Part shown: positions 12,037 through 53,268 of the stretch, in pieces
Numbering within the stretch: the stretch's first letter is position 1
How the letters are laid out: each line of letters opens with the position of its first letter
DNA from: a virus
Lineage: Duplodnaviria > Caudoviricetes
Length of the DNA: 54,113 bases
Direction: 5' to 3' (one strand)
Virus record (IMG/VR): IMGVR_UViG_3300042868_006771
Coordinates: 1 to 54,113 of that record
Made by a program: the position numbers and the translations under genes
The notes under the pieces: generated by a model
The model's input: only the letters and a program-made list of their open reading frames with translations
What the model was told of the DNA's origin: nothing
The model's database searches: none

Positions 12037-12037
12037 T

Positions 12038-39105: not shown

Positions 39106-39322
39106 ACCACACGCTAGATCAGTATTAGTCCAAGACGGTAACATTGAAAAGGCCCTGCGCAAGTTCAAGAAAAAAGTACAGAATTCTGGCATACTAAATG
39201 ATCTCCGCGAACGTGAATTTTACATCAAGCCCACTACAGCCCGCAAACTCAAACGCAGTGCAGCCAAGAATCGCTGGCGCAAACAACTAGAAGCCCAACA
39301 ACTCCCGCCACGCACCTACTGA
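39098..39322 (+). CDS. rpsU: ribosomal protein bS21
   Basis: IEKALRKFKKKV...G.L..LREREFY.KPT..RK. Confidence 0.92.
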   Translation: MNKPHARSVLVQDGNIEKALRKFKKKVQNSGILNDLREREFYIKPTTARKLKRSAAKNRWRKQLEAQQLPPRTY

Positions 39323-39567
39323 TGTACATTGAGTTTGGTTTGCAAAATCAAGGCTATTATCATGATCGAGAACTCATCGAAACATCTATGAAAATGTGGT
39401 ACGAACAATACCACATCGAATATCGTACAAAACCAGCAAGACTAAAGTTGAGAGTCACCTTTGATCATGATGAGTCCTATACATTTTGGGCCATGACTTG
39501 GAACCCCAAACAGCACAAGATTCTTGCTCGATATCGCATTGTGTCTGATCTAAATAACAAAATATAA
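39322..39567 (+). CDS. hypothetical protein
   Basis: coupled ORF. Confidence 0.65.
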   Translation: MYIEFGLQNQGYYHDRELIETSMKMWYEQYHIEYRTKPARLKLRVTFDHDESYTFWAMTWNPKQHKILARYRIVSDLNNKI

Positions 39568-39594
39568 TTCTGGTTTGTGTTATAATAAATACTG

Positions 39595-39658
39595 TTGTAG
39601 TGCCCATGGTGGGGCTACAATTCAAAGTCATCTTGCTTAATAAAGGAGAAAACAAATG
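39595..39658 (+). promoter_or_regulatory. ROSE-like RNA thermometer in the hsp20 5' UTR
   Basis: TCTTGCT (39631-37) pairs with SD AGGAGA (39644-49) with a bulged G; 5' hairpin at 39595-39620. Confidence 0.6.
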
Positions 39659-40114
39659 ACAAAAACTCTAACCCTTCGCACATTCGATCTTCCCGCAATT
39701 CACAAATTTGGTATCGGTTTCGATAACTTGTTTGATGATCTCATGCGTGTCAACGCCCAACAAGGCAACACCAACTATCCACCTTATGACATTGTGCAAA
39801 TCAATGATGATGAGTACATGATTAGTTTGGCTGTGGCTGGCTTTGGTCATGACAACCTAAATATAACCAAGGACAAAAAGACCTTGGTCATTGAAGGCAA
39901 ACACAGCCGTGAGACTGTGGACAGCGAAGACAGCACTGCAAAATACTTGCACAAAGGCATCAGCGAACGAAGTTTCCGCAGGGAATTTCAACTGGCTGAT
40001 CACGTGGAAATCAGCAATGCACATCTTGAACTTGGTATCTTGAATGTTCACTTGAAACGTGAAGTTCCTGAAGAAGCCAAACCAAAGACCATTGCGATCT
40101 CTTACAAAGAGTAA
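39656..40114 (+). CDS. ibpA: small heat-shock protein (IbpA-like)
   Basis: IGFD, NYPPYDI, AVAGF, YLHKGI..R.F.R.F.L, G.L. Confidence 0.93.
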   Translation: MTKTLTLRTFDLPAIHKFGIGFDNLFDDLMRVNAQQGNTNYPPYDIVQINDDEYMISLAVAGFGHDNLNITKDKKTLVIEGKHSRETVDSEDSTAKYLHKGISERSFRREFQLADHVEISNAHLELGILNVHLKREVPEEAKPKTIAISYKE

Positions 40115-40127
40115 TATAATGTAAATA

Positions 40128-40153
40128 CAGTGACAGCAATCCTGCTGTCACTG
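40128..40153 (+). terminator. stem-loop after hsp20
   Basis: cagtgacagca-atcc-tgctgtcactg perfect 11-bp stem; weak U-tract. Confidence 0.55.
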
Positions 40154-40179
40154 ATTGAGCAACAATGCAAGGAATAGAA

Positions 40180-40491
40180 ATGGCACAGAGCGACGTTCGC
40201 ACACGAATCAAACCATCAGAGGCTGTGAAAGAGCCACCTATGTTCAAAGTTATCTATCTCAATGATAACCAAACCACAATGGACTTCGTAGTAGACAGTT
40301 TGATTGAATATTTTGACTACACTGCCGAGACTGCAGAACAAATTACAGTGGATATTCATCAAGCAGGGCAAGCCACAGTGGCCGTATTACCTTATGAAAT
40401 TGCCGAACAAAAAGGCATTGAAGTAACACTTAGCGCACGGTCACAGAGCTATCCACTGCAAATTAAGCTGGAACCCGAAACAGTGAATTAA
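40180..40491 (+). CDS. clpS: ClpS adaptor
   Basis: PPMFKVIYLNDNQTTMDFVV, IH..G.A, EIAEQK, YPL. Confidence 0.92.
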   Translation: MAQSDVRTRIKPSEAVKEPPMFKVIYLNDNQTTMDFVVDSLIEYFDYTAETAEQITVDIHQAGQATVAVLPYEIAEQKGIEVTLSARSQSYPLQIKLEPETVN

Positions 40492-41276
40492 TCGTCTATG
40501 ACAATACGCAGGGGGTGATACACATACTGGCGCCATTCAGTGTCGCCCCTACCCCTGCAATTGTTGACAAATCTTATCCCTTGACGTATTTGATCCACAC
40601 TCCCATGGTAATGACCAAAGCACCAGGTGTGCAATTTGTTTTCTGTGTCGGCGCTCAATGCCTGCATCATGAATCCATTGCCCATGGTGTTGAATCGCAA
40701 GGTGTCAGCAATGCCAATGTCGTGAGCAATTAAACTTGAATTAGGTACAGTGTGTGTTACACAAACAATTTTTTTGACATCTGCATGAGTTTGCAATCGC
40801 TTGATGCTGCTGATCATGTACTTGGCATCTGTTGTGGCCAATCGACCCACAGTTTTGGCAACCAACGCAGAAACTTGACACTGATCTTGAAACCACAATG
40901 AAGTCTGTTCAGCATCTATTGACGGATCTAAATCATAAGTCCACCAGCCATTGGTTCCCAGTATGGCCACACCGTCTACTACCACAACATTGTCTTGCAA
41001 AAATACCACGTTGGGAATTTTTTTTATGCGGCGAACTAGATCGGCGTAGCTGGCATTCAGATCATCATAGTAATATCGATGTTCATCATTGCCATCAACA
41101 TAAAACACTGCTTGATAGCATGTGGCAAGATGACGCAATGTATTGATCACCACTTCGCGATCACGTGCAAGGTCACCGGCCACAACACAATGGGCACTGG
41201 TCGCCAGTCCAGTCCAGTCAAATTCAGGCCAAGTTTCGGCGTGAAGGTCAGAAATTAAATCAAATGCAAAACTCAT
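40488..41276 (-). CDS. calcineurin-like metallophosphoesterase
   Basis: SDLH, AGD, GNDE, THT.P, FGHYH. Confidence 0.85.
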   Translation of the reverse strand: MSFAFDLISDLHAETWPEFDWTGLATSAHCVVAGDLARDREVVINTLRHLATCYQAVFYVDGNDEHRYYYDDLNASYADLVRRIKKIPNVVFLQDNVVVVDGVAILGTNGWWTYDLDPSIDAEQTSLWFQDQCQVSALVAKTVGRLATTDAKYMISSIKRLQTHADVKKIVCVTHTVPNSSLIAHDIGIADTLRFNTMGNGFMMQALSADTENKLHTWCFGHYHGSVDQIRQGIRFVNNCRGRGDTEWRQYVYHPLRIVIDD

Positions 41277-41300
41277 GATACATATTTAAAAGGATCGCAC

Positions 41301-41657
41301 ATGAACATTATATTTGGAGACGCACTGGAAACTTTGCCTGACAACTACACTGTGTTGGAATTAGACACATTTGTGTTTCCGCCTGACAGCCAGAAACGCA
41401 CCAGTTATTGTGTGGTTGAAAAAGTGCCCTTGACAGATTTTCCCATGATGGAATCCTACATCAAAGTACATGCTGACATGATGCAGGCCTATAGGGACCA
41501 AAACTGGGACTATTGTTTGCACGCCATCAAAGGCCTAACAGGACGCTGGAACGGCGAGTTAGACAGTTTTTACTCTAATTTGTTGCAACGTGTAGAGCAG
41601 TATCAAGCCAATCCGCCAGGTGACTACTGGACTGGTTATATTGATCGAACTGTTTAA
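41301..41657 (+). CDS. hypothetical protein
   Basis: RBS AAGGA. Confidence 0.7.
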   Translation: MNIIFGDALETLPDNYTVLELDTFVFPPDSQKRTSYCVVEKVPLTDFPMMESYIKVHADMMQAYRDQNWDYCLHAIKGLTGRWNGELDSFYSNLLQRVEQYQANPPGDYWTGYIDRTV

Positions 41658-41950
41658 ATTTCAGGACTGCTACCGGTCTTGTCCTCGCCGGCACCCAACA
41701 CACATGCCAATCTAGTATCATATTCTATCATGGTCCAACTACGTGTTTCTTTGTTGACCAACAACGTTATATGAGTGTTGTGTACTGATTTTCCAACCCA
41801 GACTGGTATTTCTTTGTGTGTGTCTACAAAATAGTTCATGACTATTTGTGCATCTGAACATTTTAAAGATTTTTGTAAATCTATAATTTCCTGGGCGTGG
41901 GCTATAGAGCTGATTAGGCAGAATAGGAACGCCATTGTTGTGTTACGCAT
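41654..41950 (-). CDS. secreted hypothetical protein
   Basis: signal peptide ending AHA; RBS AAGGAG. Confidence 0.7.
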   Translation of the reverse strand: MRNTTMAFLFCLISSIAHAQEIIDLQKSLKCSDAQIVMNYFVDTHKEIPVWVGKSVHNTHITLLVNKETRSWTMIEYDTRLACVLGAGEDKTGSSPEI

Positions 41951-41977
41951 GATGGCTCCTTAAACGATTATTTATTG

Positions 41978-42313
41978 TCAGGGTGCGAATGTATCACTCA
42001 TGATATACACAGTAACACCAACACGCTGCCGTTCATTGAAGATATCTCGCCAGGCAGGCATTTTGCGAAATCCATTGGTCACCCGATCGTACACAAAGTC
42101 AGGTTGGTAGCTGGAAGATTTGAGTTTGGGTGCCTTGCCAGGATACGCACTGTTGCCGTGGCAATGTCGACACTGACCGTCCCATACCTGCTGACCTAAC
42201 GCAATCAAAGAGGTATCCTTCATCACAGTGTCTGTGAATGCTGGTGCCGATTCTTGGCAGTAGGCAGCATGACTAAAGATATAAAATAACAACACCACTG
42301 CCGCGTTTTTCAT
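41978..42313 (-). CDS. monoheme class I cytochrome c
   Basis: signal peptide, G..VW...CRHCHG, P.L, distal MPAW; RBS AGGAGA. Confidence 0.85.
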   Translation of the reverse strand: MKNAAVVLLFYIFSHAAYCQESAPAFTDTVMKDTSLIALGQQVWDGQCRHCHGNSAYPGKAPKLKSSSYQPDFVYDRVTNGFRKMPAWRDIFNERQRVGVTVYIMSDTFAP

Positions 42314-42338
42314 AGTGGCTTCTCCTGTGTAATATTTA

Positions 42339-43337
42339 TTACACAACAGGCACTAAATTATTTCGAAATATTTCCCAGGCAGTTTGCCATGACCAACGCT
42401 GACTGCCGTCCCAAACTCGATGTCTGGGCAAGAACAAACAATCTGTTACTGCTTGTTTCAAGTAAGGATTCATACATCCTGTGATGCCTTCGTCTATGAC
42501 ATCCAATGGCCCAGTAGCAGGATATGCAGCCACCGGAGTTCCGCAGGCCATGGCTTCGATCATCACAATGCCAAATGTTTCCCACTGACTGGGAAACACA
42601 AACACATCTGCCAGGTTGTAGTAGTAGGCTAGATCAGCACCAGTTTTGAATCCCACAAACTCCACGTCAGGATAACGTGACTGTAACTCTGCACGATAAG
42701 GACCATCGCCTACTAAAATCTTGCGTGAGTTGGGATAACTCATGCCACAAAAGTCATCCAAGTTCTTTTCTTTGCTGACTCTACTTACACATACCAAGGT
42801 GGTCTTGGCATTGGGCCGGCGTTCTCTGGGATAAAATATCTCTCTATCCACACCACGTGTCCATGGTATGATGTCACCGTCGAACCCATGCTCGCGCAAC
42901 TCCTGTACCATGGTTTCAGTCGTGGTCAGCACTTTTCCTGAGTGTTTGTGAAACCAACGCACTAGAGGCCAAGTAATGGCTTCAGGTATGCCAAACAGTT
43001 TTCTAAGTCCTTCTGGAAATTTAGTATGATAAGCAGTGTTGTAGCGATAATGATGTTTGTCAAGATATTGTCTAACACGCAAACCCACAGGACCCTCGGT
43101 GGCGATGTGGATATGATCCGGACGGATCTCCTCAAGTATCGCGCCCACATTCCGGGGAAGGGCAATCTTGACTTGGTTGTAGCCAGGGCAATCAAAGTAG
43201 CGGAACCGCCCGGGATCAAGATATACAACACGATAGTTGTCGCGAATCGCATGCGCCTCAATATTTTTGTAAGTGGTAACCACGCCATTGATCTGATCCG
43301 GTAAGTTGTCTGTGACTATTAAGATTGTTTTTGACAT
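42339..43337 (-). CDS. GT4 glycosyltransferase, Agt-like glycolipid synthase
   Basis: IVTD..P.QINGVV.T, HIATEGP.G, TAYHT.FPE, RVSKEKN, VFPS..ETFG.V.IEAMACGTPV. Confidence 0.8.
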   Translation of the reverse strand: MSKTILIVTDNLPDQINGVVTTYKNIEAHAIRDNYRVVYLDPGRFRYFDCPGYNQVKIALPRNVGAILEEIRPDHIHIATEGPVGLRVRQYLDKHHYRYNTAYHTKFPEGLRKLFGIPEAITWPLVRWFHKHSGKVLTTTETMVQELREHGFDGDIIPWTRGVDREIFYPRERRPNAKTTLVCVSRVSKEKNLDDFCGMSYPNSRKILVGDGPYRAELQSRYPDVEFVGFKTGADLAYYYNLADVFVFPSQWETFGIVMIEAMACGTPVAAYPATGPLDVIDEGITGCMNPYLKQAVTDCLFLPRHRVWDGSQRWSWQTAWEIFRNNLVPVV

Positions 43338-43492
43338 TGCCCCGTTACCTTGAATGTTTTAAACTTTAAATCATATCGCATGGTCGCCAACACCTGTTCG
43401 CAACTGAGCTGATTTGGGAAAACTAATTCTATTCTTCCGGGTTGATCTTGCGGATTCGTGCTGTGTACTGCTATCAATATCATCAACCACAT
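43319..43492 (-). CDS. 57-aa two-Cys protein overlapping the plcP 3' end
   Basis: RBS AGGAG; MWLMILIAVH...SCEQ...GQCQKQS*. Confidence 0.55.
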   Translation of the reverse strand: MWLMILIAVHSTNPQDQPGRIELVFPNQLSCEQVLATMRYDLKFKTFKVTGQCQKQS

Positions 43493-44243
43493 TGTCAGTC
43501 TCCTGTGTCCAAGTTACAATTTCCCATGTGCCATCATGGCGTTCTACCAAGGCTGTGCATGACTCTACCCAGTCGCCATCATTCATGTATGCAACGCCAT
43601 CTATATCTTTGATCTCTGCGTGATGTATGTGTCCGCAGATCACACCGTCGAATCCGCGTTTCCGGCAGTAGTCAGCAAGATTACGTTCAAAGTGAAATAT
43701 AAAGTCTACTGCTTTTTTGACCCGGTGTTTAAGGAACAGGCTAAGGCTAAAGTACCCAAAACCCATGCGATGACGAATCCAATTAATCCTAGTATTGAGC
43801 CCAAGAATGAAATCATATGCTTTGTCTCCCAACATTGCCAACCATGGCGCCAGTCTAGTGATGCCGTCAAACATGTCACCATGTACCACAAGATAATGCC
43901 GACCGTCTGCACCTATGTGTTCTGTTTGATTTACCAATTCAATTATGCCGAATCCAATGCCATACTGCATGAAGGGTCTTAGAAACTCGTCGTGATTACC
44001 AGCTACATATACAACCCTAGTACCACGCTTGCTATGACCCAGCACACGGCGAATAACATTAGTGTGCGACTGTTTCCATCGCCATTTGTTTTGTTTGATT
44101 TTCCATGCATCTATGATGTCTCCCACAAGATACAGCGTTTCGCAAGTGTTGTGTTTGAGAAAGTTGTTGAGTTTGTCAGCCTGGCTGTCTTTGGTGCCAA
44201 GATGAACATCGCTGATGAATATACTGCGATAAGTTTTTTGCAT
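43371..44243 (-). CDS. plcP: PlcP-like phospholipase C (LpxH2-type metallophosphoesterase)
   Basis: SDVHLG, LVGDIID.W, GNHDE (His, not the LpxH Arg), HGD.FD, CGHIH, N.GDWVES; next to an Agt-like GT. Confidence 0.75.
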   Translation of the reverse strand: MQKTYRSIFISDVHLGTKDSQADKLNNFLKHNTCETLYLVGDIIDAWKIKQNKWRWKQSHTNVIRRVLGHSKRGTRVVYVAGNHDEFLRPFMQYGIGFGIIELVNQTEHIGADGRHYLVVHGDMFDGITRLAPWLAMLGDKAYDFILGLNTRINWIRHRMGFGYFSLSLFLKHRVKKAVDFIFHFERNLADYCRKRGFDGVICGHIHHAEIKDIDGVAYMNDGDWVESCTALVERHDGTWEIVTWTQETDNVVDDIDSSTQHESARSTRKNRISFPKSAQLRTGVGDHAI

Positions 44244-44264
44244 CTAGTATTTACAACCAGATGT

Positions 44265-44293
44265 GTTACATTAGCGTTACAGTTTTATGTAAG
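44265..44293 (-). promoter_or_regulatory. Pho-box-like triple repeat upstream of plcP
   Basis: minus strand CTTACAT-aaaa-CTGTAAC-gcta-ATGTAAC, 11-nt period. Confidence 0.65.
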
Positions 44294-44294
44294 T

Positions 44295-44453
44295 CTAAAT
44301 TCTAACCAAGGTCCATTTAGTTGTAAATGACTTGCCCTCGGCTCGGCGTTTAGCAATCTTCTGGAACTCCTGCATGCGTAGTTCCCGAATAGTTTTCTCG
44401 TCGTGGTCGAAGCAAGCCCGATACAACTTGGAAATCAATTTCCGTTGTTTCAT
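44295..44453 (-). CDS. 52-aa basic protein
   Basis: RBS GGAGG; MKQRKLISKLYRACFDHDEK...KWTLVRI*. Confidence 0.6.
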   Translation of the reverse strand: MKQRKLISKLYRACFDHDEKTIRELRMQEFQKIAKRRAEGKSFTTKWTLVRI

Positions 44454-44507
44454 AACCCACCCTCCATTAGTGTACAGATACTTATACTACATCACACAAT
44501 TTGTGAT

Positions 44508-44828
44508 CTAATTCTGCAATGTTTCTTGCCTGGCTGCTTGCAATTCTTTGCGTAGAGTATTGTAATCTTCTAGTGTAGCAACGGAAGGCACAGTAGACTT
44601 CATATAGGCAGGCGGTACAGTCTGCCATTCAGATTCACTCACACCGGCCACAATCATGGCAGTGTATTCGTGTCCGTCGCTGGTGTGCAGTTTTACTCGT
44701 TCAAATCCTTGTGGAGTCTTTGCTGCGTTCATACAGGCCTGTGCCAGTGCTCTAAGAGCCGCTGGGTCTGCTATGATGTGCAAATCTTGTTGGGGTTCAC
44801 TGTGAGGGTATATGTGTAGTCTAGCCAT
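44508..44828 (-). CDS. hypothetical protein coupled to the DnaE-like gene
   Basis: TAATG overlap with the upstream stop. Confidence 0.7.
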   Translation of the reverse strand: MARLHIYPHSEPQQDLHIIADPAALRALAQACMNAAKTPQGFERVKLHTSDGHEYTAMIVAGVSESEWQTVPPAYMKSTVPSVATLEDYNTLRKELQAARQETLQN

Positions 44829-46504
44829 TATGTTATGTGCTCAATGTCCTTTAGTTTCATACGTTTGCTTTTGTACACTTTAACACATTCACTACTGTTT
44901 GTATAGTCTAAACGGCCTTTGCCCCACAAGATTGGTTGATCGCTAAAGGACATGGCATGTGGCACTATCACATCTAGATAACGACCGTTGCCGGTGCCCA
45001 GGGTGGCAAAGGTTATGTAGTCTTTGGCGCCGCTTTTAAACACACGATAATTGGCCACCAATCCCAAAAACTCCACTTCGCCGGGACGTCTTATTTCAGT
45101 ACAGGCAGGAATAAAATTACTGCTGCTCCAACGACCAGTTCTTGCTAGTTCAGCACACTCTCCACCTTGGCTGGGCGAAGGCACAGCTCCGGCCAGTTTG
45201 GCTTCTTGATAATACACCCAACTGCTGTAACTGCCTTCGCAGTGTTTCAAACAGGCTCGCCAGAAAGCCTCAGGGTTATGTGCCTTTTGATAGGCCAAGG
45301 CCCAGATCAATCTGCCCAGATTGGTGGCATGAGCTCGACACAGTCCAAAATGACTGAGTTCACGTAGTGACGCCAACACACTATCACGTTTGGGATGATC
45401 ACCAATCAATTGCATAAACTCATAGATCTTTTCCTCATTGCGTTTGGCAAATGCTCTGCGCCACATGTCGGCAGTGTACATGTCACAACCCAGGATATCA
45501 GCAATCATGGTGATAGCATCATCCTCAAACACCACTGTGTCTTGCTGTATGGTATCAGCACTCCAGTCTTGGAACGCACTGGCTTTGCGTCTGCCTTGTG
45601 TGGCCACTGGACGGATCAAGGCAGTGGCCAATGTACAGTCACTTTTGCTCTTGACTTTTAAAGCGCGAAACAGTCTTTTCATAGCTGGTGATTCGCCTTG
45701 AGTCACACCCAACACATCACCACGACCCAGCAAGTCACTGGTCTTTTCATCATGTTCAGGATAGTCTGTTAGTGGACGCTGATCTATTTCCCACAACTGG
45801 CTCAGTCCACGATTGGCCAAGATATCTATTTTGAAATGTTCAAGATCTTCTGTTTCGTATTTGTCTAACAAGATTTGATTGTTGCCATTGATCAGGCTTT
45901 TGGGCACAGCACGATCAAAAATTAAGATGCCACCACAGTGTTTTGATATACAGCGTTTTTTGCCCATAAGTTTGGCTGTGACTCGTTCTGCTTCCTGTAT
46001 CTCTTCTGGAGGCAATACTTGGCTGAATTCAAAGCCACGTTTGAGTGTGCCTTTGGCTCCTAGCCTTTTGGCGGCTTCTCTCTTGGCAGACTTTTCTTTG
46101 TACATTACATAGTTGCTGACCCTGGCACTTTGTCCCGGCCAACGACGGAATATGCGATTCATCACAGTGGCCTGTTGCCAGTGTGGAAAGTCAAGATCAA
46201 TATCGGGCAGATCGTCACGTTTGGGATTCATGAAACGTGCTATGGGGATATTCTCTGCCACTGGGTCAAGATCGCTGATGCCCATGAGCCAGCACACAAG
46301 ACTTGAGCCTGCTGATCCTCGAGTGATGTGTGGTATGTCTGTGGTTAAATCTAATATTTCTCTCACACGCAAGAAGTGTCGAGAAAAATTTTGATCTCTA
46401 ATTAGTTCTAGTTCTTCTGCCAGTCTGTGTGCGTATTTGGGATCTTGGGGTAATTCTCTTCTAAATTGTTTTACTAGTTGTTCAAGTTCTCGATATCTAT
46501 CCAT
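44828..46504 (-). CDS. dnaE: PHP-less compact DNA polymerase III alpha-like protein
   Basis: RL.EEL..I, RGSAGSSLV, DLDP, RFMNP.R...PDIDLDF, KHCGG, KIDIL, IRP, AYQKAH. Confidence 0.85.
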   Translation of the reverse strand: MDRYRELEQLVKQFRRELPQDPKYAHRLAEELELIRDQNFSRHFLRVREILDLTTDIPHITRGSAGSSLVCWLMGISDLDPVAENIPIARFMNPKRDDLPDIDLDFPHWQQATVMNRIFRRWPGQSARVSNYVMYKEKSAKREAAKRLGAKGTLKRGFEFSQVLPPEEIQEAERVTAKLMGKKRCISKHCGGILIFDRAVPKSLINGNNQILLDKYETEDLEHFKIDILANRGLSQLWEIDQRPLTDYPEHDEKTSDLLGRGDVLGVTQGESPAMKRLFRALKVKSKSDCTLATALIRPVATQGRRKASAFQDWSADTIQQDTVVFEDDAITMIADILGCDMYTADMWRRAFAKRNEEKIYEFMQLIGDHPKRDSVLASLRELSHFGLCRAHATNLGRLIWALAYQKAHNPEAFWRACLKHCEGSYSSWVYYQEAKLAGAVPSPSQGGECAELARTGRWSSSNFIPACTEIRRPGEVEFLGLVANYRVFKSGAKDYITFATLGTGNGRYLDVIVPHAMSFSDQPILWGKGRLDYTNSSECVKVYKSKRMKLKDIEHIT

Positions 46505-46593
46505 TAATTTGCTGCCTTAGTTTGTTTTAGGAAAATACTTATGGTATGATATGCTACCATAGAAAGATTTTGGCTACCAACTCATGCAGTCGT

Positions 46594-46617
46594 AAAAAAA
46601 GGCCCTTCTGGGCCTTT
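46594..46617 (-). terminator. Rho-independent terminator after the porin gene
   Basis: aaaggccc-ttct-gggccttt with a U-tract on the minus strand. Confidence 0.8.
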
Positions 46618-46667
46618 AGTACTGGTTACGAGTTCCAGCGCCGCTCAATCGTTGCGGTCGGTTTTAA

Positions 46668-48050
46668 TTAAAAGTTGATTTGTGTGCGAACACTGACCAC
46701 ATTTTCTTTAGTGGTTGTGCCCATGTCAGTGGTGTCCAATGGTGCAATTGCTGTGTCAAATTTGGTGGTAGCATAGTTGGCCATGATTCTAGCATTGCTG
46801 TTAAGAATCCAGTTTACACCGTAGGTCACAGTTCTAGCACCAGTTGAGTTTTGTGTGCGGTTGCCTGTCACAGCACCGTCAACACTGTTGCTGCCAGCGG
46901 CTGAATATTCAGAAACACGCACACCCACTTGCCATGCACCGTGACCATTGCCCACAACACCGCCGTAGTCTTTCATGAACACCGACGATGGGGTGATGCC
47001 ACCGAATGCACCACCTTTGTAACTCTTGGCAAAGTCTTCACCAGTGATGTTGTACATGGCTTCTACATACTTGGCCTGAACACGAACATCTTGTGTGGCC
47101 ACACAAGCAGTGGTCACGCAACTGGTAGCACCTGTAACATAGTTATAGGTGTTGGCCGAAGCTGAGTAGTTGCTGTCAAAGTTTTCTGCTTGCAGTTTAA
47201 ATGGACCATGTGCCAGGGCCAGTTCAATACCGTTCATGGTACGCTGAATGCTCACTGCATTGTTGGCAGTGGCACCATAGGCTGCTGTGTCAATCTTGTC
47301 ACCACCAATCTGGGCACGATAAACATTGCTCATACCACGTGCTTCTGAACGCATGGACACAATGGTACCGCGTGTGGTTGTGCTGGGAGCATCCACAGTG
47401 TTGCCTGAAGTTGTGGGCACCAACTGTGACCGTCCACCAGTACGTGCCACACCCAAGTGCAACACAGTGTTGGGTCTAGCAATCAATTGACCAAAGTTCA
47501 CAGCCACACGTGCCGCATACTGTGAGCCCAAGGTGTTGTCGTTGTTACTTTCAGTGAAGTCACCTTGAAATGCTGACAATCCATACACTAAACCAGCACT
47601 TGGTTCGCCGTGTAGCATCACGCCCAAACGTTTACCTGGTACCAATTGATTGCCATATGAACGTTCCATAAAGCCAATGTTGTTAGAGCTAGTTTGCTCT
47701 TCCAAGCTGAAAGGCTGTTTGAATCTACCTGTGCGTAACTGTGCTGACTTATTAAAGCCATAATTGACAAACGCAGTGTCAATAAAGTTAGTAGTACCGC
47801 CAACAGCATTGCCCACCAACTCATAGTTGATCTGCTTGTTGATACTGCCATTGATACCAATTCTAGCTCTACGCAGTTCAAAGTTGTCGCCCACGCTGGC
47901 ACTGTCACGGTCCACAGAGTCTGTTAGATCTGTTTGGAATGCTCGTGTGTCAAAATGCACACGGCCTGTGACCTTGGCATCCACCTGTGCCATTGCTGGC
48001 GATGTCAGGGCCACAAATACTGCAGCCAAGACTAATTTCGTAAATTTCAT
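46668..48050 (-). CDS. phosphate-selective porin OprO/OprP family
   Basis: signal peptide, FELRRARIG, GRFKQPFSLE..TSS....FMER, Y...TGE, GVNW.LN, C-terminal Phe. Confidence 0.85.
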   Translation of the reverse strand: MKFTKLVLAAVFVALTSPAMAQVDAKVTGRVHFDTRAFQTDLTDSVDRDSASVGDNFELRRARIGINGSINKQINYELVGNAVGGTTNFIDTAFVNYGFNKSAQLRTGRFKQPFSLEEQTSSNNIGFMERSYGNQLVPGKRLGVMLHGEPSAGLVYGLSAFQGDFTESNNDNTLGSQYAARVAVNFGQLIARPNTVLHLGVARTGGRSQLVPTTSGNTVDAPSTTTRGTIVSMRSEARGMSNVYRAQIGGDKIDTAAYGATANNAVSIQRTMNGIELALAHGPFKLQAENFDSNYSASANTYNYVTGATSCVTTACVATQDVRVQAKYVEAMYNITGEDFAKSYKGGAFGGITPSSVFMKDYGGVVGNGHGAWQVGVRVSEYSAAGSNSVDGAVTGNRTQNSTGARTVTYGVNWILNSNARIMANYATTKFDTAIAPLDTTDMGTTTKENVVSVRTQINF

Positions 48051-48076
48051 AGTTTCTCCTTTAGATTTACTTTTGT

Positions 48077-48104
48077 ATTATAACATATTATGTAGTGTTG
48101 TCAA
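48077..48104 (-). promoter_or_regulatory. sigma70 promoter for the porin gene
   Basis: TTGACA-16nt-TATAAT with extended TG. Confidence 0.7.
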
Positions 48105-48115
48105 TACCACAGCAG

Positions 48116-49135
48116 TTATTTTTTGATCTGTGACCAAACACGGTCACGAATCTGTTGAGTCAGAACATCTGGCAACGGCACGTAGTCTAGATCCAGTGCG
48201 GCCTTTTGTCCATTCTTAAATGCCCAGTCAAAGAATTTCAATGCTTCGGCACTTTGTTTACGATCTGTGGGATCCTTGTACATGAGAATAAAACTAGCAG
48301 TGCTCACTGGCCACACTGCGTCGCCCTTTTGATCCACAATGCTCAGGCCCATACCAGGCACACTGAACCAATCTGCACCAGCAGCCGCGGCAGCAAAGGT
48401 GGTGTCATCTGGTGATACCCAGCGACCATTGCGGTTCTGCATCTGCATGAACACCAGTTTGTTTTTCTTCACATACGCATACTCAACATAGCCGATGCTA
48501 CCTTTAATACGTGCCACATTGGCAGCAACACCTTCATTGCCTTTGCCACCCACAGAACTTGGTGCAGGCCATTTTACAGCAGCACCACGACCCACACGTT
48601 CCAACCAGGCAGGACTGGCTGTGCTGAGATAGTCAGTCCAGTTAAATGTGGTACCTGAACCATCAGCACGATGTACAACGGTAATGGTTTGATCTGGCAA
48701 CACCTTGCCGGGATTGAGGGCCTGAAGTCGAGCATCATTCCACTTGGAGATGTCGCCCAAGAAAATTTCTGCCAGCACTGGACCGGTGACTCTGAGTTCA
48801 CCAGGTTTAAATCCCTGTAGATTCACAATGGGCACAGTGCCGCCAATGATGGCAGGAAACTGTACCATGCCTTCTTTTTCTAAATCTGCACCTGACATGG
48901 GTGCATCTGTAGCACCAAATATCACAGTCTTGGCTTTGATCTGTCTGATGCCACCTGAACTGCCGATACTTTGGTAGTTCAATTGAACATCGTGTTTTTC
49001 GCTGTAGATTTCAGCCCACTTGCTATAAATGGGAAAGGGGAAAGTTGCGCCTGCCCCAGTGATGGTGTTTTGAGCATTTGCTGACGGACTCAGCAAATAT
49101 AGTGTTGCGGCCAACAAGGCCAAGATTTTTTTCAT
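48116..49135 (-). CDS. pstS: phosphate ABC transporter substrate-binding protein PstS
   Basis: GAGATFP.P.Y.KW, YQSIGSSGG, FGATD, HRADGSGTT, GKGNEGV, IGYVEY. Confidence 0.96.
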   Translation of the reverse strand: MKKILALLAATLYLLSPSANAQNTITGAGATFPFPIYSKWAEIYSEKHDVQLNYQSIGSSGGIRQIKAKTVIFGATDAPMSGADLEKEGMVQFPAIIGGTVPIVNLQGFKPGELRVTGPVLAEIFLGDISKWNDARLQALNPGKVLPDQTITVVHRADGSGTTFNWTDYLSTASPAWLERVGRGAAVKWPAPSSVGGKGNEGVAANVARIKGSIGYVEYAYVKKNKLVFMQMQNRNGRWVSPDDTTFAAAAAGADWFSVPGMGLSIVDQKGDAVWPVSTASFILMYKDPTDRKQSAEALKFFDWAFKNGQKAALDLDYVPLPDVLTQQIRDRVWSQIKK

Positions 49136-49189
49136 GTGTTTTCCTTTGTGAATTTGTGCGATTGCACAATAATATTTAAACACAAAGAT

Positions 49190-49218
49190 ATTACAGTAGT
49201 GTTACAGTTTCTTGACTG
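49190..49218 (-). promoter_or_regulatory. Pho-box-like triple repeat upstream of pstS
   Basis: minus strand CAGTCAA-gaaa-CTGTAAC-acta-CTGTAAT, 11-nt period. Confidence 0.7.
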
Positions 49219-49354
49219 ATTTGTTCTTTTCGCTGGGACCGGCTGCTTTGGCTTCTTCCAGCATGCGCTCTGTGGCAGGGGTGTTTTGGGGAGGATGATA
49301 CACGTGATGTTTCGGGGGTTCGTGTCGTCGTGGGGCTCGTTTAAACCAACTCAT
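49202..49354 (-). CDS. 50-aa hypothetical protein
   Basis: RBS AAGGA; MSWFKRAPRRHEPPKHHVYHPP... Confidence 0.5.
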   Translation of the reverse strand: MSWFKRAPRRHEPPKHHVYHPPQNTPATERMLEEAKAAGPSEKNKSVKKL

Positions 49355-49413
49355 AGGCGGGTCCTTTGTAGGTTAAAATACTTATTGTGTGGGTTTGAAA
49401 CATAAACTCCAGT

Positions 49414-50616
49414 TTAATTTTGTTCTAGAAGTTGCTGAATTGCAGAGCGATGTTTATAAGTACAATGCTGTTGCATGACAACCATGGCTTGATTCAAATT
49501 AATTTTGTATTCTTCTATCACTTGATCAAATAATCCATTGAAAAAACGCTGTTTGTTACGTTGTGCAATCTCATGCAATTTTGTGTACAATATTTGTTTA
49601 GCGTCCGCATCAAGTGCAGCAATTCTTTTCATTTCTTGAATAATTGCATCTAATCTTTCTTGGCTGTCAGTGATAGTATCATATGTCTCATCAATCAATT
49701 CTGAAAATGTTTCAAATCCATAGTTCCGCAAATATTGCAAACTATCTGGTGTGGCTGCTAGTATAAAAGGCTTACCGCATGCAATAGGCCTAAGTGTTTT
49801 TTCTGTAAGGTGCCAACGTGTGTCGTCAAACAAGGTTTCCAACACAATTTCAATCTCGCATGCAGCATAATCTGAGCTACAGTAATCTGCACTGCTGTCT
49901 GAATTAGCAGTGTTAGCTGGATAAATTTGTTCTAAATTGTGCAAGTGAATTTGAAATTTTTTGTTTGCAAACACATGATTTGTATAGTGTGTGTTATTGT
50001 CAACGGTAGCAAATGATATTTCAGTGTTAGGAATCAAGCCATGCAATACTAGTTGTTGCGCAAAATACAGCCTATATTCTCTAGTGCCGCACCATGCACG
50101 GTTGTAAATCAAGAACGGTTTTTTTATATGTGTTGGGGCATAACTTAATGCAGGATCATGTTGAGCATATCTAAACCAGTCCAGTGCAATTATTGCGTGG
50201 CTCCAAATATATACTGGTACAAAATCGTTTTTTTGATAAATTGTCAAATTTTTGCTGCGGTATTCTGAGTGCAACAGCAAAGTTTTATCAAAACAGTTAT
50301 GAATCATTAATACTGATCTTAAATTAAAGTTGGCTTGATATTCTAACAACTTCGGTTGAGTCAACGCAGGAAATTTTTCTAACAAATTTCGTGTAGATTG
50401 TATTATGTCGCTGCGGGAATAAAATTGCCAATTCAGAGGTTCTTGGTCGTGACATACCATTTGTGCCTTGCTGTTAGATTCCTGGGTAGTGTATTCCAAT
50501 AGAGGTTTAAGATCCTCTATTTTTCTTGAGCCATGTGGCCACCAGCGATAAATTACTAGATCATGGTTGACACAGTCGGCCAAATAGTGATATAATCTGT
50601 CTAAAGGAACACTCAT
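49414..50616 (-). CDS. putative glycosyltransferase-like protein (GT10-like TEK motif)
   Basis: IVLETL...HLTEKTLRP...GKPF...GFETF...DETYD; paralog of 6638-7726. Confidence 0.55.
   Translation of the reverse strand: MSVPLDRLYHYLADCVNHDLVIYRWWPHGSRKIEDLKPLLEYTTQESNSKAQMVCHDQEPLNWQFYSRSDIIQSTRNLLEKFPALTQPKLLEYQANFNLRSVLMIHNCFDKTLLLHSEYRSKNLTIYQKNDFVPVYIWSHAIIALDWFRYAQHDPALSYAPTHIKKPFLIYNRAWCGTREYRLYFAQQLVLHGLIPNTEISFATVDNNTHYTNHVFANKKFQIHLHNLEQIYPANTANSDSSADYCSSDYAACEIEIVLETLFDDTRWHLTEKTLRPIACGKPFILAATPDSLQYLRNYGFETFSELIDETYDTITDSQERLDAIIQEMKRIAALDADAKQILYTKLHEIAQRNKQRFFNGLFDQVIEEYKINLNQAMVVMQQHCTYKHRSAIQQLLEQN
50567..50596 (+). promoter_or_regulatory. sigma70 promoter embedded in the opposite-strand CDS
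   Basis: TTGACA-18nt-TATAAT with TG extension; RBS AAGGA at 50604. Confidence 0.65.
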
Positions 50617-51858
50617 ATGAAAAAAATTGGTTTTATTGGGATCGGCAAACTGGGTCTCGATTGTGCAGAAGTCATGGCTGAGAAGCATGAAGTGCGGGGT
50701 TACGATATTTACCCACGTGAAAGCGACTCAGTAAAAGTTTGTGACATTGCGGAGTTGGTTGACGAAAGCGAATGGATCTTTATTGCGGTGCCCACACCAC
50801 ATGCCCAAGGATATGATGGATCAGTGCCCAGCAGCCACATGGAGCCCAGAGACTTTGGACATGATGCAGTGATTGATGCAATCAAGAATGTTAACCGATA
50901 TGCAACCACACCTAAAAAGGTTGTGTTGATCAGCACAGTGTTGCCCGGCACCACACGTAAACACTTTTATCCTCTATTAGACAGCAAGCATCAGTTCTTG
51001 TACAACCCTTACTTGATTGCCATGGGTAGTGTAAAGTGGGATATGGTCAATCCAGAAATGGTCATGATTGGTACAGAAGACGGAAACCCCAATGCACTAG
51101 CAGGTGAACTGATTGACTTGTACAAAACCATCATGGCAAACGATCCACGCTATGAGATTGGCACCTGGGATGAATGCGAAGCCATCAAGATCTTCTACAA
51201 CACATTTATTTCAGCCAAGGTTGGTCTTGTGAACATGATTCAAGACTTTGCCCTGCGCATTGGCAACATCAATGTAGACGTTGTAACAGATGCCTTGGCA
51301 CGTAGCACCATGCGCATCATGGGACCCAAGTACATGACAGCAGGCATGGGCGATGCAGGTGCTTGCCACCCCCGAGATAACATTGCCCTGCGTTGGTTGG
51401 CCAAAGAATACAACATTGGCTATGACTTGTTTGATACAGTAATGCATGCACGTGAAGTACAGGCCAAGAACTTGGCCATGTACTTGTTGGACCTGAGTGT
51501 GATGCATGACAACATGCCTATTGTGATTCATGGCAAAGCCTACAAACCCGATGTGGAATACTGTATTGGCTCATACTCAACCTTGGTGGGCCACTACATT
51601 GAACAAGAAGGTCGTAAAGTGGTGTACGTTGATCCATTGGCAGATGATCCCGCCAATGTTGTGGCTACAGTGGACACACCTGCAATCTTTTTGTGGGCAC
51701 ACAACCGCAAGATCACTTATGAGTACACCGGTGATCAGCTGGACACACTGCCTTATTGCGACATCCGACCTGGCAGTATCATTGTTGACCCATGGCGCAA
51801 ACTTACATCAACTCCTGAGGTCGAAGTTGTCCACTATGGCAACACAAGAGCTCATTAA
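50617..51858 (+). CDS. UDP-glucose/GDP-mannose dehydrogenase family
   Basis: GIGKLG, IAVPTP, STV.PGTT, E.IK...N, G.G.GACHPRD (catalytic Cys), G.AYKP. Confidence 0.88.
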   Translation: MKKIGFIGIGKLGLDCAEVMAEKHEVRGYDIYPRESDSVKVCDIAELVDESEWIFIAVPTPHAQGYDGSVPSSHMEPRDFGHDAVIDAIKNVNRYATTPKKVVLISTVLPGTTRKHFYPLLDSKHQFLYNPYLIAMGSVKWDMVNPEMVMIGTEDGNPNALAGELIDLYKTIMANDPRYEIGTWDECEAIKIFYNTFISAKVGLVNMIQDFALRIGNINVDVVTDALARSTMRIMGPKYMTAGMGDAGACHPRDNIALRWLAKEYNIGYDLFDTVMHAREVQAKNLAMYLLDLSVMHDNMPIVIHGKAYKPDVEYCIGSYSTLVGHYIEQEGRKVVYVDPLADDPANVVATVDTPAIFLWAHNRKITYEYTGDQLDTLPYCDIRPGSIIVDPWRKLTSTPEVEVVHYGNTRAH

Positions 51859-52354
51859 GTATCATATCCCAATGTTTTGGGATGATGAATACAAACGTTT
51901 GGACTATACCAATGAGTTGTTCAACGATCCTGCCAGTGTTGAACTATGGACCAGTCAAGGCTATGCCAATCAATTCACTGGTGACATGTGTGACATGCGT
52001 GGTCAACAACCCAGTTGGAATAAGACATTCATTGATATCTACACAGAAATGGGCTGGAAAGACATTGGCACCAGTTATTACAGAATGAGCACTGGCACTA
52101 TTTTGCCAGTTCACAGTGACCTATATGTTCGATATATTGACTTGTTTGGTTTAGCCGGGCAAGAACATCGTATACGTAGAGCAGTGGTGTTTTTAGAAGA
52201 TTGGCAATCAGGGCATTACTTTGAAGGTGCAGAAAAACCTGTAGTTAACTGGCAAGCTGGAGATGTGGTTGAATGGATTTATGACTTGCCACACATGGCA
52301 GCAAATGTGGGACTAGACCCTAGATATACACTGCAAATAACAGGATGGGTATGA
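51836..52354 (+). CDS. 2OG-Fe(II) oxygenase-like protein
   Basis: LPVHSD ... H..AN.G...RY.LQ.T (HxD...H...R). Confidence 0.7.
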   Translation: MATQELIKYHIPMFWDDEYKRLDYTNELFNDPASVELWTSQGYANQFTGDMCDMRGQQPSWNKTFIDIYTEMGWKDIGTSYYRMSTGTILPVHSDLYVRYIDLFGLAGQEHRIRRAVVFLEDWQSGHYFEGAEKPVVNWQAGDVVEWIYDLPHMAANVGLDPRYTLQITGWV

Positions 52355-53268
52355 TATCAACATACAACGAATGGGATTCACTCCGACGCATCGTGGTAGG
52401 TCGTGCCAACACAGCCAACTGGCCTGTGAACGATCCTGTGTTCAAAAATGAAGGCGAGAAAACCACTTGGAAAGAAACACCAGTTCCTTCAGGTGCTGTA
52501 GCACAGTGGATAATTGATGAAGCCAACGAAGATCTTGAGATATTGTCCCAAACATTGCAAGACTTGGGTGTGGTAGTGGAACGTCCTGATCCCTGCCTAA
52601 ACTTTCAAACACACGACGGTCTCAGTGCCTACTGCCCCAGAGACCGATTGTTGGTGTATGGTAGTACCATTGTGAATCCTGTGATGATGTATCCCTGCAG
52701 AGACATGGAAGCACAGTGCTACTATAACATCATTGACGAAGCTGAACACTACTTGCACATGCCCAGAAACGAAGGCATGATCTTGGAAGCAGCCAATGTT
52801 TGCAGGCTCAATGACTCATGGTTGGTGTTGGAATCAGCAGGCGGCAATAGAGCCGCATTGAACTGGCTGCGTGAGCAGTTTCCTGCGGTCAACATTGAAA
52901 TGTGCAACTTCTATGCTGGCGTGCATATTGACTCAACCATTGTGCCCATACGTGAAGGCCTGGTGCTGCTGAATGGTACCAGAGTGAATGACACCAATTG
53001 CCCCCGAGTGTTTGAAAATTGGGACAAGATCTACGTGGATGATGTGGTGGCACAGGGCTTTTACCAATATCCTTATGCGTCAAAATGGGTGGGAATGAAC
53101 ATGCTGGCTGTGAATTCAACCACAGTGATCATGGACAAGAACCAACCAGACCTGATTGCCCAACTGGAGCAACGCAAGTTTACAGTGATTCCGTTGGAAT
53201 TACGCCACAGTCGTACACTAGGTGGTGGATTTCACTGTGTTACACTGGATTTGGAACGGGTAAACTAG
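52351..53268 (+). CDS. amidinotransferase (glycine/inosamine-phosphate amidinotransferase family)
   Basis: NEWD.LR...VG, CPRD, HIDST, GGGFHC.TLD. Confidence 0.88.
   Translation: MISTYNEWDSLRRIVVGRANTANWPVNDPVFKNEGEKTTWKETPVPSGAVAQWIIDEANEDLEILSQTLQDLGVVVERPDPCLNFQTHDGLSAYCPRDRLLVYGSTIVNPVMMYPCRDMEAQCYYNIIDEAEHYLHMPRNEGMILEAANVCRLNDSWLVLESAGGNRAALNWLREQFPAVNIEMCNFYAGVHIDSTIVPIREGLVLLNGTRVNDTNCPRVFENWDKIYVDDVVAQGFYQYPYASKWVGMNMLAVNSTTVIMDKNQPDLIAQLEQRKFTVIPLELRHSRTLGGGFHCVTLDLERVN

Follow-up and report, generated by a model that had tools for sequence, protein, structure and literature searches.

The window analysed here is the whole 54,113-nt stretch of the IMG/VR virus record IMGVR_UViG_3300042868_006771, and its minus strand carries four co-oriented genes related to phosphate or lipid metabolism. 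PstS is encoded at 48116-49183; it matches the NCBIfam PstS equivalog NF008171 with 393 bits against a cut-off of 339, and phrog_5385 at 7.7e-65. Its likely real start is the ATG at 49135, which gives 339 aa and lies in front of a signal peptide (...SPSANA|Q). The gene at 46668-48050 encodes a 460-aa OprO/OprP-type phosphate-selective outer-membrane porin (Pfam Porin_O_P, PF07396, 1.4e-39), whose PDB matches are OprP (2o4v, 3.1e-11) and OprO (1.9e-10); the protein has a signal peptide and a C-terminal Phe, and its atlas neighbours are all OprO/P clusters. A conserved hairpin, CTGGAACTCGTAACCAG, followed by a GC stem and a T-run, forms a terminator-like element after the porin gene (46594-46638, minus strand) and recurs after porin genes in related loci. 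A metallophosphoesterase of 290 aa (43371-44243; Pfam Metallophos 5e-11), which reads AGNHDEF, lies next to a GT4 glycosyltransferase of 332 aa (42339-43337; Pfam Glyco_trans_1_4 7.8e-23 and Glyco_transf_4 4.6e-13), with a gap of 33 nt between them.

The initial annotation, which had described these four genes as a phosphate-scavenging and lipid-remodelling system and had assigned GNHD to PlcP and GNRD to LpxH, is thus confirmed as to gene content, although it did not state that the genes are not contiguous. Two minus-strand genes lie between PlcP and the porin: a 106-aa ORF of unknown function (44508-44828), which gives only a weak Imm32 hit below cut-off, and a 558-aa DnaE-like palm and fingers piece (44828-46504; PF07733 2.1e-37, PF17657 1.5e-11), which is not part of the phosphorus module. 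No PHP domain is found anywhere in the window. The DnaE-like piece is 92-99% identical in four related loci (L004, L005, L054 and L056), in which the small ORF is conserved next to it. Moreover, the end coordinate of 49218 given by the initial annotation lies beyond the PstS start, but it does take in its promoter. Directly downstream of the GT4, and possibly in the same transcript, a gene at 41978-42346 (minus strand) encodes a periplasmic monohaem cytochrome c (PF13442 1.7e-13) with a signal peptide and a CRHCH motif; homologues follow the GT4 in the related loci L055-L057, but no link to the phosphorus module is shown. A divergent neighbour at 50617-51858 (plus strand) resembles UDP-glucose 6-dehydrogenase (phrog_9148 3.2e-88; PF00984 and PF03721) and is 96-98% identical in L054-L057. 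It could supply UDP-glucuronate for a glucuronosyl-DAG lipid, though this link is speculative.

The window is phage DNA. It is collinear over its whole length with positions 65.6-124.8 kb of a 212.6 kb IMG/VR contig (39,018 of 54,113 bases align, and most ORFs are 75-98% identical) that has a large terminase (TerL, phrog_36964, 2.4e-114), a tail tube, a gp32-like SSB and UvsX. The PF03237 terminase was found in 3 of 5 relatives, including both records that CheckV rates 100% complete, of 367 and 360 kb. DNA contigs of two lake-water runs cover all 30 bins of 38000-53000. Interestingly, a minor variant in run X1 lacks 42336-44516, that is, PlcP plus GT4 (depth 2.5, against about 12-41 in the bins over PlcP and GT4); the module is therefore dispensable. 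RNA-library contigs that lie on the genes are 90-95% alike and do not prove transcription.

Several lines of evidence identify the esterase as PlcP rather than LpxH. In BLASTP, it is 56.3% identical (E 3e-95) to the P. aeruginosa protein that is followed by a GT and an adenylate/guanylate cyclase-domain gene (probably cyaB, PA3217), that is, the PA3219 type, and 50.6% identical (E 2e-88) to the S. meliloti protein that lies 2.8 kb from, and divergent to, genes annotated as a LuxR-type regulator and an acyl-homoserine-lactone synthase. The latter are presumably sinR/sinI, which would make this protein the SMc00171 type. The two references are 46.6% identical to each other, matching the 46% published for PA3219 against S. 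meliloti PlcP (PMC8528852). In the tree, both references and the window sit inside a 66-row group that is split from 30 LpxH by a branch of length 2.48 with SH-aLRT 100. The protein fails both LpxH equivalog models, with 46.5 bits against a cut-off of 134 and 37.6 against 190. On LpxH model NF003743 the window scores 45-46.5 bits, true LpxH in 29 of 31 sampled gammaproteobacterial genomes scores 207-328 bits, and a second paralogue in 8 of those genomes scores 30-49 bits. All metal ligands are kept; GNHD is present in 64 of 64 PlcP-like rows and in both reference-species PlcPs, and GNRD is present in 28 of 30 LpxH rows, the other 2 having H. The protein has no signal peptide and is considered cytoplasmic, and its C-terminal 40 residues are disordered. 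Its AF2 model (pLDDT 76.6) has a predicted LpxH-like fold with a helical insert, and the top 10 PDB hits are all LpxH, at 18-22% identity.

The GT4 is Agt-like and is a putative diacylglycerol glycosyltransferase. It is 38.3% identical over 324 residues (E 3e-72) to the P. aeruginosa Agt1-type protein; the UDP-sugar motifs are present, and His104, Thr160-Arg161 and Trp317 match the DAG-site residues His104, Thr162, Arg163 and Trp320 of GTcp. However, it has Glu253 where GTcp has its catalytic Asp256, and GTcp D256E lost over 90% of its activity. Among phage GT4s, 26 of 39 have Glu and 13 have Asp, whereas among cellular plcP-linked GT4s 23 of 28 have Asp.

The pairing of the two genes recurs in both bacteria and phages. 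In 35 of 46 cellular loci (L006-L051), the GT4 homologue (32-44% identical) lies downstream of the plcP homologue on the same strand. At least 593 IMG/VR stretches encode this PlcP, and in 75 of the best 80 a GT4 (39) or a GT2/GT21 (36), never both, lies within 3.5 kb downstream of it. PstS is present in 20 of these 80 loci and a porin in 11 of 80. In particular, the four genes are contiguous in loci L086 and L124 (PstS-Porin-PlcP-GT4) and in L088 and L111 (PlcP-GT4-PstS-Porin). Among 80 viral porin loci, PstS is adjacent in 74 and PlcP is present in 21.

PstS and PlcP are each preceded by a promoter-like element. That of PstS (49171-49207, minus strand) has a Pho-box-like direct repeat, CTGTAAC-ACTA-CTGTAAT (49190-49207), followed after 10 nt by TTAAATATT as a -10-like box. 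That of PlcP (44246-44282, minus strand) has the repeat CTGTAAC-GCTA-ATGTAAC (44265-44282), followed after 11 nt by TAAATACT, which ends 2 nt before the ATG, so that the mRNA is probably leaderless or nearly so. The composite motif TGTNAY-N5-TGTNAY-N8-16-TAAAT, which was first read from the window itself, occurs only at these two sites in the window and 0 times in 200 shuffles. In 1.24 Mb of related loci, 39 of 46 hits lie upstream of PlcP or PstS, although the motif precedes only 29 of 80 PlcP and 10 of 18 PstS genes. A search for the repeat alone hits the known E. coli pstS Pho box once in 8 kb, and the nearest cellular PlcP (L013) has TTGTAAT-CGAA-TTGTAAT between pstS and plcP. However, the same search found a box near plcP in only 7 of 43 non-jumbo-phage loci (41 cellular plus Mosig and S-SRM01; the 7 are all cellular), five of those on the opposite strand, and it missed the published P. 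aeruginosa box, for which the consensus in front of plcP-agt is CTGTCATNNNNCTGTCAT. The motif could be a phage-specific promoter rather than a PhoB site.

These results support the interpretation put forward in the initial annotation, namely that the phage both imports phosphate and mines host phospholipids as a phosphorus source, and each in-silico test that it named came out in its favour. The window is probably a 54 kb piece of a jumbo phage of roughly 350 kb from lake water, carrying a small copy of part of the bacterial Pho regulon built from two modules, which in the window are separated by a replication-type gene. PstS and the porin, exported to the periplasm and outer membrane, would raise phosphate capture through the host's own PstCAB. 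PlcP, a cytoplasmic Mn-type metallophospholipase C, would cut the phospho-head groups off host phospholipids and leave diacylglycerol, which the Agt-like GT4 would glycosylate to a phosphorus-free glycolipid. As each module has its own promoter with a Pho-box-like direct repeat in place of a -35 box, the PhoB of the as yet unidentified host would switch them on only under phosphate starvation. The enzyme activities, PhoB control and use of the freed phosphorus are inferred from sequence, and no phosphatase that would free Pi from phosphoethanolamine or similar head groups was identified.

It is possible, though unlikely, that the PlcP-GT pair remodels the host envelope for another purpose, such as blocking superinfection by changing membrane or receptor properties, stabilising the membrane during a long jumbo-phage infection, or timing lysis. 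Membrane lipid make-up affects phage attachment in Ruegeria (PMC9938194), lipid renovation has been discussed as affecting phage receptors in P. aeruginosa (PMC9804370), a fatty-acid desaturase sits near PlcP in 11 of 80 related loci, and the module is dispensable in the minor variant. Nevertheless, PlcP shares its promoter type with PstS and with nothing else in the window, it is repeatedly fused into one block with PstS and the porin, and PhoH lies nearby in 10 of 80 loci. A similarly doubtful alternative is that PlcP alone degrades phospholipid and the GT4 glycosylates another acceptor (LPS or capsule sugar, a protein, or phage DNA). The Glu253 substitution and the fact that every NCBIfam hit of the GT4 is far below its cut-off favour this view, and the UGDH and a sugar epimerase in the window could serve any glycan pathway. 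On the other hand, the similarity to the Agt1-type MGDG synthase, the conserved DAG-site residues and the position after plcP, conserved as in bacteria, argue against it, and the alternative partner in 36 of 80 loci is a GT2/GT21, the family of the processive DAG glycosyltransferases (PMC8231724).

That the cassette is host chromosome joined to phage DNA by misassembly, or that the contig is cellular, is very unlikely. The four genes are of host type, the two closest records among genome contigs are filed in a Haliscomenobacter MAG, and the window itself holds no capsid or terminase gene. However, phage genes flank the cassette on both sides in the same order as in the terminase-bearing contig, the same gene is found on IMG/VR stretches that include two records rated complete, the MAG contigs share the DnaE piece and UGDH of the phage at 80-94%, the nearest clearly cellular PlcP is only 57-60% identical, and two independent lake runs cover the junctions at similar depth. 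The least likely reading is that the esterase is an LpxH acting in lipid A synthesis, as JGI and GenBank name it and its relatives (LpxH or UDP-2,3-diacylglucosamine diphosphatase) and as the nearest solved folds might suggest, since, in addition to the evidence above, genomes with a true LpxH carry this type as a second paralogue, and 109 of 301 sampled genomes of the class of a Rhodobacterales MAG (G011) have it (the tally includes one genome flagged unpublished, G255), while Alphaproteobacteria appear to use LpxI rather than LpxH.

No paper describing phage plcP-agt was found, and surveys list the gene as viral "lpxH"; the parts, however, are not wholly unseen. The cultured Pelagibacter phage Mosig EXVC030M has pstS (Mosig_00119) next to a 46%-identical homologue (Mosig_00120) that falls in the PlcP group of the tree; this gene is annotated as a putative UDP-2,3-diacylglucosamine hydrolase, is not discussed in the two papers searched, and has no glycosyltransferase beside it and no porin. 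A 2026 preprint (bioRxiv 10.64898/2026.06.18.733297) reports oprP in freshwater amoC-phages, large phages (155-338 kb) of lake bacteria, but it uses oprP as a host marker and does not mention pstS, lipid, LpxH, glycosyltransferase or phosphorus. LpxH, the closest solved structure, shares the calcineurin-like fold with a helical lipid-binding insert but is a separate paralogue family with a different substrate and pathway. Cyanophages appear to carry pstS/phoA auxiliary genes under host PhoB control, and the cyanophage PstS is the subject of a bioRxiv preprint; the PstS described here is likewise expected to plug into the host PstCAB and to be switched on by the host's phosphate-starvation regulator. 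This cassette, in contrast, adds an outer-membrane porin and an internal phosphorus source (membrane lipid), and the phage is a jumbo phage of a heterotrophic lake bacterium.

The closest counterpart is the bacterial PlcP-Agt lipid-remodelling pathway (S. meliloti SMc00171; Phaeobacter MED193; SAR11 HTCC7211; P. aeruginosa PA3219/PA3218), with which the phage pair shares the enzymes, the gene order (plcP, then a GT4), the GNHDEF and CGHIHH motifs and a Pho-box-type promoter. Here, however, the pair is encoded by a phage and joined to pstS and a porin. With the phospholipids replaced by glycolipid, the membrane would hold until lysis while the freed phosphorus feeds the synthesis of a very large DNA genome, and the likely purpose is the supply of phosphorus for virion DNA rather than survival of the cell.

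The minus strand between 42.3 and 49.2 kb of the window holds, in order of transcription, genes for PstS (48116-49183), a porin (46668-48050), a 558-aa DnaE-like piece (44828-46504), a 106-aa ORF (44508-44828), a metallophosphoesterase (43371-44243), a GT4 glycosyltransferase (42339-43337), and a small cytochrome c (41978-42346). PstS passes the curated NCBI equivalog model NF008171 at 393 bits against a cut-off of 339 and TIGR00975 at 363.5 bits against 205, and it has a Sec-type signal peptide (after M17) if translation starts at the ATG at 49135. The porin matches the Pfam Porin_O_P domain over its whole length (PF07396, 1.4e-39, 136.9 bits against 20.9, covering residues 26-460); its only PDB matches are OprP and OprO, and it carries a signal peptide and ends in Phe. 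The esterase reads AGNHDEF. The co-oriented genes for PstS, an OprO/P-type porin, a GNHD-type metallophosphoesterase, and a GT4 enzyme described in the initial annotation are therefore confirmed, with the correction that the four genes are not contiguous. The intervening DnaE-like protein contains only the palm (PF07733) and finger (PF17657) domains, and no PHP domain exists anywhere in the window. It is 92-99% identical in four related loci (L004, L005, L054, and L056) but found no match covering at least 60% of its length in G003, a 212.6 kb relative of the window; it may be a split or mobile polymerase piece. The cytochrome c, directly after the GT4, is a periplasmic monohaem protein (signal peptide, CRHCH motif), and homologues follow the GT4 in the related loci L055-L057. 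Porin genes are followed by a conserved hairpin, CTGGAAC(Y)CGTAACCAG (46622-46638, minus strand, in the window; also in related loci such as L086, L108, L116, and L128), which in other loci is preceded by a second conserved hairpin (GGTCAC...GTGACT); their function is unknown.

The window is itself a whole IMG/VR virus record, rated 11% complete. It holds replication and nucleotide genes (helicases, primase, DnaB, RNR alpha and beta, and a ligase) but no capsid or terminase gene and no tRNA genes. A protein-quality-control cluster is also present on the plus strand (37894-40491), comprising a ClpX-like ATPase with a zinc finger (37894-39105), Hsp20 (39656-40114), and the ClpS adaptor (40165-40491). 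The window is collinear with G003:65.6-124.8 kb: most ORFs are 75-98% identical, and 39,018 of 54,113 bases align. Outside that stretch, G003 encodes a large terminase (phrog_36964, 2.4e-114), a tail tube protein, a gp32-like SSB, and a UvsX-like recombinase. Terminase PF03237 was found in 3 of 5 relatives, including both records that CheckV rates complete (367 and 360 kb), whereas tail sheath PF04984 was found in 0 of 5, from which no conclusion on morphology is drawn; amoC (PF04896) was likewise not found in 5 relatives, although the control was negative throughout, so this absence is uninformative. The two best hits among genome contigs (L004 and L005) are filed under a Haliscomenobacter sp. 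MAG. They are syntenic with the phage (UGDH, DnaE piece, PlcP, and GT4) and share its DnaE piece (92-94%) and UGDH (80-88%), so they are most simply phage contigs binned with a MAG, though alternatively they hint at the host. Moreover, twenty-one lake-water metagenome runs hold 36-86% of the sampled words of the cassette, and contigs of two of them cover every bin of 38000-53000. Host contamination is regarded as very unlikely.

Several independent lines of evidence indicate that the esterase belongs with PlcP, the intracellular metallophospholipase C of the lipid-remodelling pathway, and not with LpxH. It is a calcineurin-like metallophosphoesterase (PF00149, 5e-11) that scores 46.5 and 37.6 bits against the two LpxH equivalog models, whose cut-offs are 134 and 190. 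Of 31 sampled gammaproteobacterial genomes, 29 have an LpxH at 207-328 bits, and eight of these also have a second paralogue at 30-49 bits, which is the range of the window protein. Reference proteins were identified by gene neighbourhood in other strains of the two species, from PLSDB records that are in fact chromosomes or chromosome pieces. In S. meliloti, the single homologue lies 2.8 kb from, and divergent to, genes annotated as a LuxR-type regulator and an acyl-homoserine-lactone synthase; these are probably sinR/sinI, which would make the homologue the SMc00171 position. In P. aeruginosa, the homologue is followed by a glycosyltransferase and an adenylate/guanylate cyclase-domain gene, presumably cyaB (PA3217), and Jones et al. 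place Agt1 (PA3218) immediately downstream of PlcP (PA3219) (PMC8528852). The window protein is 56.3% identical to the P. aeruginosa protein and 50.6% to the S. meliloti protein, and the two references are 46.6% identical to each other, the figure given in that paper.

In a 98-row tree, both references and the window protein sit inside a 66-row group that is cut off from 30 LpxH by a branch of length 2.48 with SH-aLRT 100. The 18 jumbo-phage rows form one clade (98), whose sister in a first tree was a Competibacteraceae MAG protein. These were quick IQ-TREE searches with some long branches; however, the PlcP/LpxH split does not depend on those branches. All seven metal ligands (D12, H14, D42, N83, H121, H205, and H207) are present in the window protein and invariant in 63-64 of 64 PlcP-like rows. 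GNHD is found in 64 of 64 PlcP-like rows, and GNHDEF in both reference-species proteins, against GNRD in 28 of 30 LpxH rows, and further PlcP-specific positions (G16, D45, E86, D126, C203, and N221) are shared by the window. An AlphaFold2 model (pLDDT 76.6) has the calcineurin-like core, a lower-confidence helical insert at about 124-196, and a disordered tail at 250-290. The ten best PDB matches are all LpxH at 18-22% identity; the predicted fold is therefore that of a lipid-handling relative. A second metallophosphoesterase (40488-41276, minus strand; phrog_1649 1.3e-24, TIGR03729 below cut-off) is 70-90% identical in six related loci (L053-L057 and L062). It is a candidate for the unidentified head-group phosphatase, but it has no informative PDB match and nothing supports that role.

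The glycosyltransferase starts 33 nt after PlcP and is 332 aa long, compared with 334 aa for the characterised SAR11 enzyme GTcp. GTcp has a His104-Asp256 dyad, the motifs GRVAxEKN and FPSxTDTFG, and the DAG-site residues His104, Thr162, Arg163, and Trp320 (PMC8231724). An alignment of 39 phage and 28 cellular plcP-linked GT4s showed that the window protein has His104, Thr160-Arg161, and Trp317, which are conserved in 39 of 39 phage GT4s, and reads SRVSKEKN at the UDP-sugar motif, where R, V, E, K, and N are kept and G/A are replaced by S. In contrast, it reads FPSQWETFG at the second motif, with Glu253 in place of the catalytic Asp. Among the phage proteins, 26 have Glu and 13 have Asp; among the cellular proteins, 23 have Asp, 4 Glu, and 1 Val. 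As GTcp D256E lost over 90% of its activity, this is a real reservation about donor, rate, or acceptor. Nevertheless, the protein is 38.3% identical over 324 residues (E 3e-72) to the P. aeruginosa Agt1-type protein, an MGDG synthase, whereas other GT4s are under 25% identical to this clade (PMC8231724). It is therefore called Agt-like and is not filed as a strict GTcp-type member. The window also holds a UDP-glucose dehydrogenase-like gene (50617-51858, plus strand) and an NAD-dependent sugar epimerase (37050-37907, plus strand), which could supply UDP-glucuronate or UDP-galactose to the glycosyltransferase or serve another glycan pathway.

In 35 of the 46 cellular loci examined (L006-L051), the GT4 homologue (32-44% identical) lies downstream of the plcP homologue on the same strand, which is the 'type 2' neighbourhood of Sebastián et al. 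(PMC4796936). The best 80 related viral loci from IMG/VR are 74-96% identical. In these, a GT4 follows PlcP in 39 and a 238-aa GT2/GT21 enzyme (e.g., L107:10907-11623) in 36, never both, and of the five with neither, three end at the PlcP gene. GT21 is the family of the processive diacylglycerol glycosyltransferases (PMC8231724), and bacterial plcP is also found next to such genes (PMC4796936). PstS lies within 10 kb in 20 of 80 and a porin in 11 of 80, and the four genes are contiguous as PstS-Porin-PlcP-GT4 in two loci (L086 and L124) or as PlcP-GT4-PstS-Porin in two others (L088 and L111). A scan of IMG/VR with the single porin sequence found only one relative, but an alignment-based scan found 134 stretches that encode one; in the best 80, PstS is adjacent in 74 and PlcP is present in 21, with a GT2 in 15 and a GT4 in 5. 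Among INPHARED phages, no porin homologue was found at E 1e-5, and the best GT4 match is 30% identical. The picture is of two two-gene modules that are shuffled and often fused, with a fatty-acid desaturase (11 loci) and PhoH (10 loci) as further frequent neighbours.

Upstream of PstS, the sequence reads CTGTAAC-ACTA-CTGTAAT, then 10 nt, then TTAAATATT; upstream of PlcP, it reads CTGTAAC-GCTA-ATGTAAC, then 11 nt, then TAAATACT, which ends 2 nt before the ATG. This is the layout of a Pho-regulon promoter, with two 7-bp direct repeats 11 bp apart in place of a -35 box, and it resembles the consensus CTGTCATNNNNCTGTCAT quoted for the P. aeruginosa plcP-agt promoter (PMC8528852), although PhoB binding and induction under phosphate starvation remain inferences. 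Even with two mismatches allowed, the pattern has only these two matches in 54 kb, and a looser composite motif also hits only these two sites and none in 200 shuffles. In 1.24 Mb of the 80 related loci, the composite motif hits 46 times, 39 of them upstream of PlcP (29 of 80) or PstS (10 of 18). Five of the other seven hits precede further genes downstream of PlcP; in two related phage loci (L121 and L122), the motif at 11626 stands before a 218-aa ORF (11707-12363) with no Pfam family, which may be a further member of the phage's phosphate-stress set. As a positive control, the repeat pattern hits the 8 kb E. coli pst region once, at the pstS Pho box. However, the motif was derived from the window itself, and the pattern is narrow: it misses the degenerate P. 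aeruginosa box and found a box near plcP in only 7 of 43 non-jumbo-phage loci (41 cellular plus the phages Mosig and S-SRM01), all 7 of them cellular. The closest cellular relative (L013) has TTGTAAT-CGAA-TTGTAAT between pstS and plcP. In Pelagibacter phage Mosig (L001), where the repeat pattern has no match, the divergent pstS / plcP-like intergenic region (7841-7992) holds several TTAACA repeats about 11 bp apart, which may be a SAR11-type phosphate-control site. In the window, a 52-codon ORF (44295-44453, minus strand) ends 12 nt before the PlcP repeat; the DNA here is conserved in 11 of 80 related loci, which does not show that a peptide is conserved.

Natural variation was also observed. 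In one sequencing run (X1), a low-depth contig (2.5) joins 42335 to 44517 with 37 other letters between and thus represents a minor population variant without PlcP and the GT4 (42336-44516). In a metatranscriptomic library (X22), contigs 90-95% alike lie on the GT4, PlcP, the porin, PstS, and UGDH; being assembled contigs, they give no transcript ends, strands, or levels, and bins without such cover carry no meaning. This is compatible with expression of relatives but is not proof, because DNA can be present in such libraries. In an RNA-library run, joints also skip the porin gene.

No paper on phage-encoded plcP or agt was found, although supplements, including Supplementary Table S2 of PMC4796936 and that of the preprint mentioned below, lay outside the search and could bear on novelty. 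Sebastián et al. (PMC4796936) contains no mention of phage or virus, and two papers on Mosig do not mention its gene. A June 2026 preprint reports oprP in lake amoC-phages as a host-like gene. The esterase gene is named LpxH by IMG and GenBank, an annotation that is corrected here, and two surveys list viral lpxH under lipopolysaccharide synthesis. The interpretation in the initial annotation, that this phage both imports phosphate and mines host phospholipids while refilling the membrane with glycolipid, stands on every test that sequence analysis allows, though function remains inferred. To it are added the placement with named PlcPs, the Pho-box-like promoters on both modules, the scale (hundreds of viral contigs), the alternative GT2/GT21 partner, and the caveat on the GT4's catalytic acid.

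A broader reading, which is about as likely as not, is that a widespread lineage of lake jumbo phages carries a modular, host-PhoB-wired mini Pho regulon, in which the [pstS-oprP] and [plcP-GT4 or GT2/GT21] modules are shuffled between genomes and which turns the infected cell's own membrane phospholipid into phosphorus for phage DNA and refills the membrane with glycolipid. The 'lpxH' genes that viral AMG surveys of lakes and oceans file under lipopolysaccharide synthesis would then really be plcP. Phage genes that ease phosphate stress (pstS, phoA, phoH) are a textbook case of viral metabolic reprogramming, but all the known ones act on external phosphorus or have no known function. A phage-borne PlcP with a diacylglycerol glycosyltransferase would be the first case of a phage tapping an internal store, the host's membrane. 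A genome of about 350 kb needs about 7x10^5 phosphorus atoms per copy; if an E. coli-sized cell contains roughly 2x10^7 phospholipid molecules, the store would be worth tens of genomes, though far fewer in small lake bacteria.
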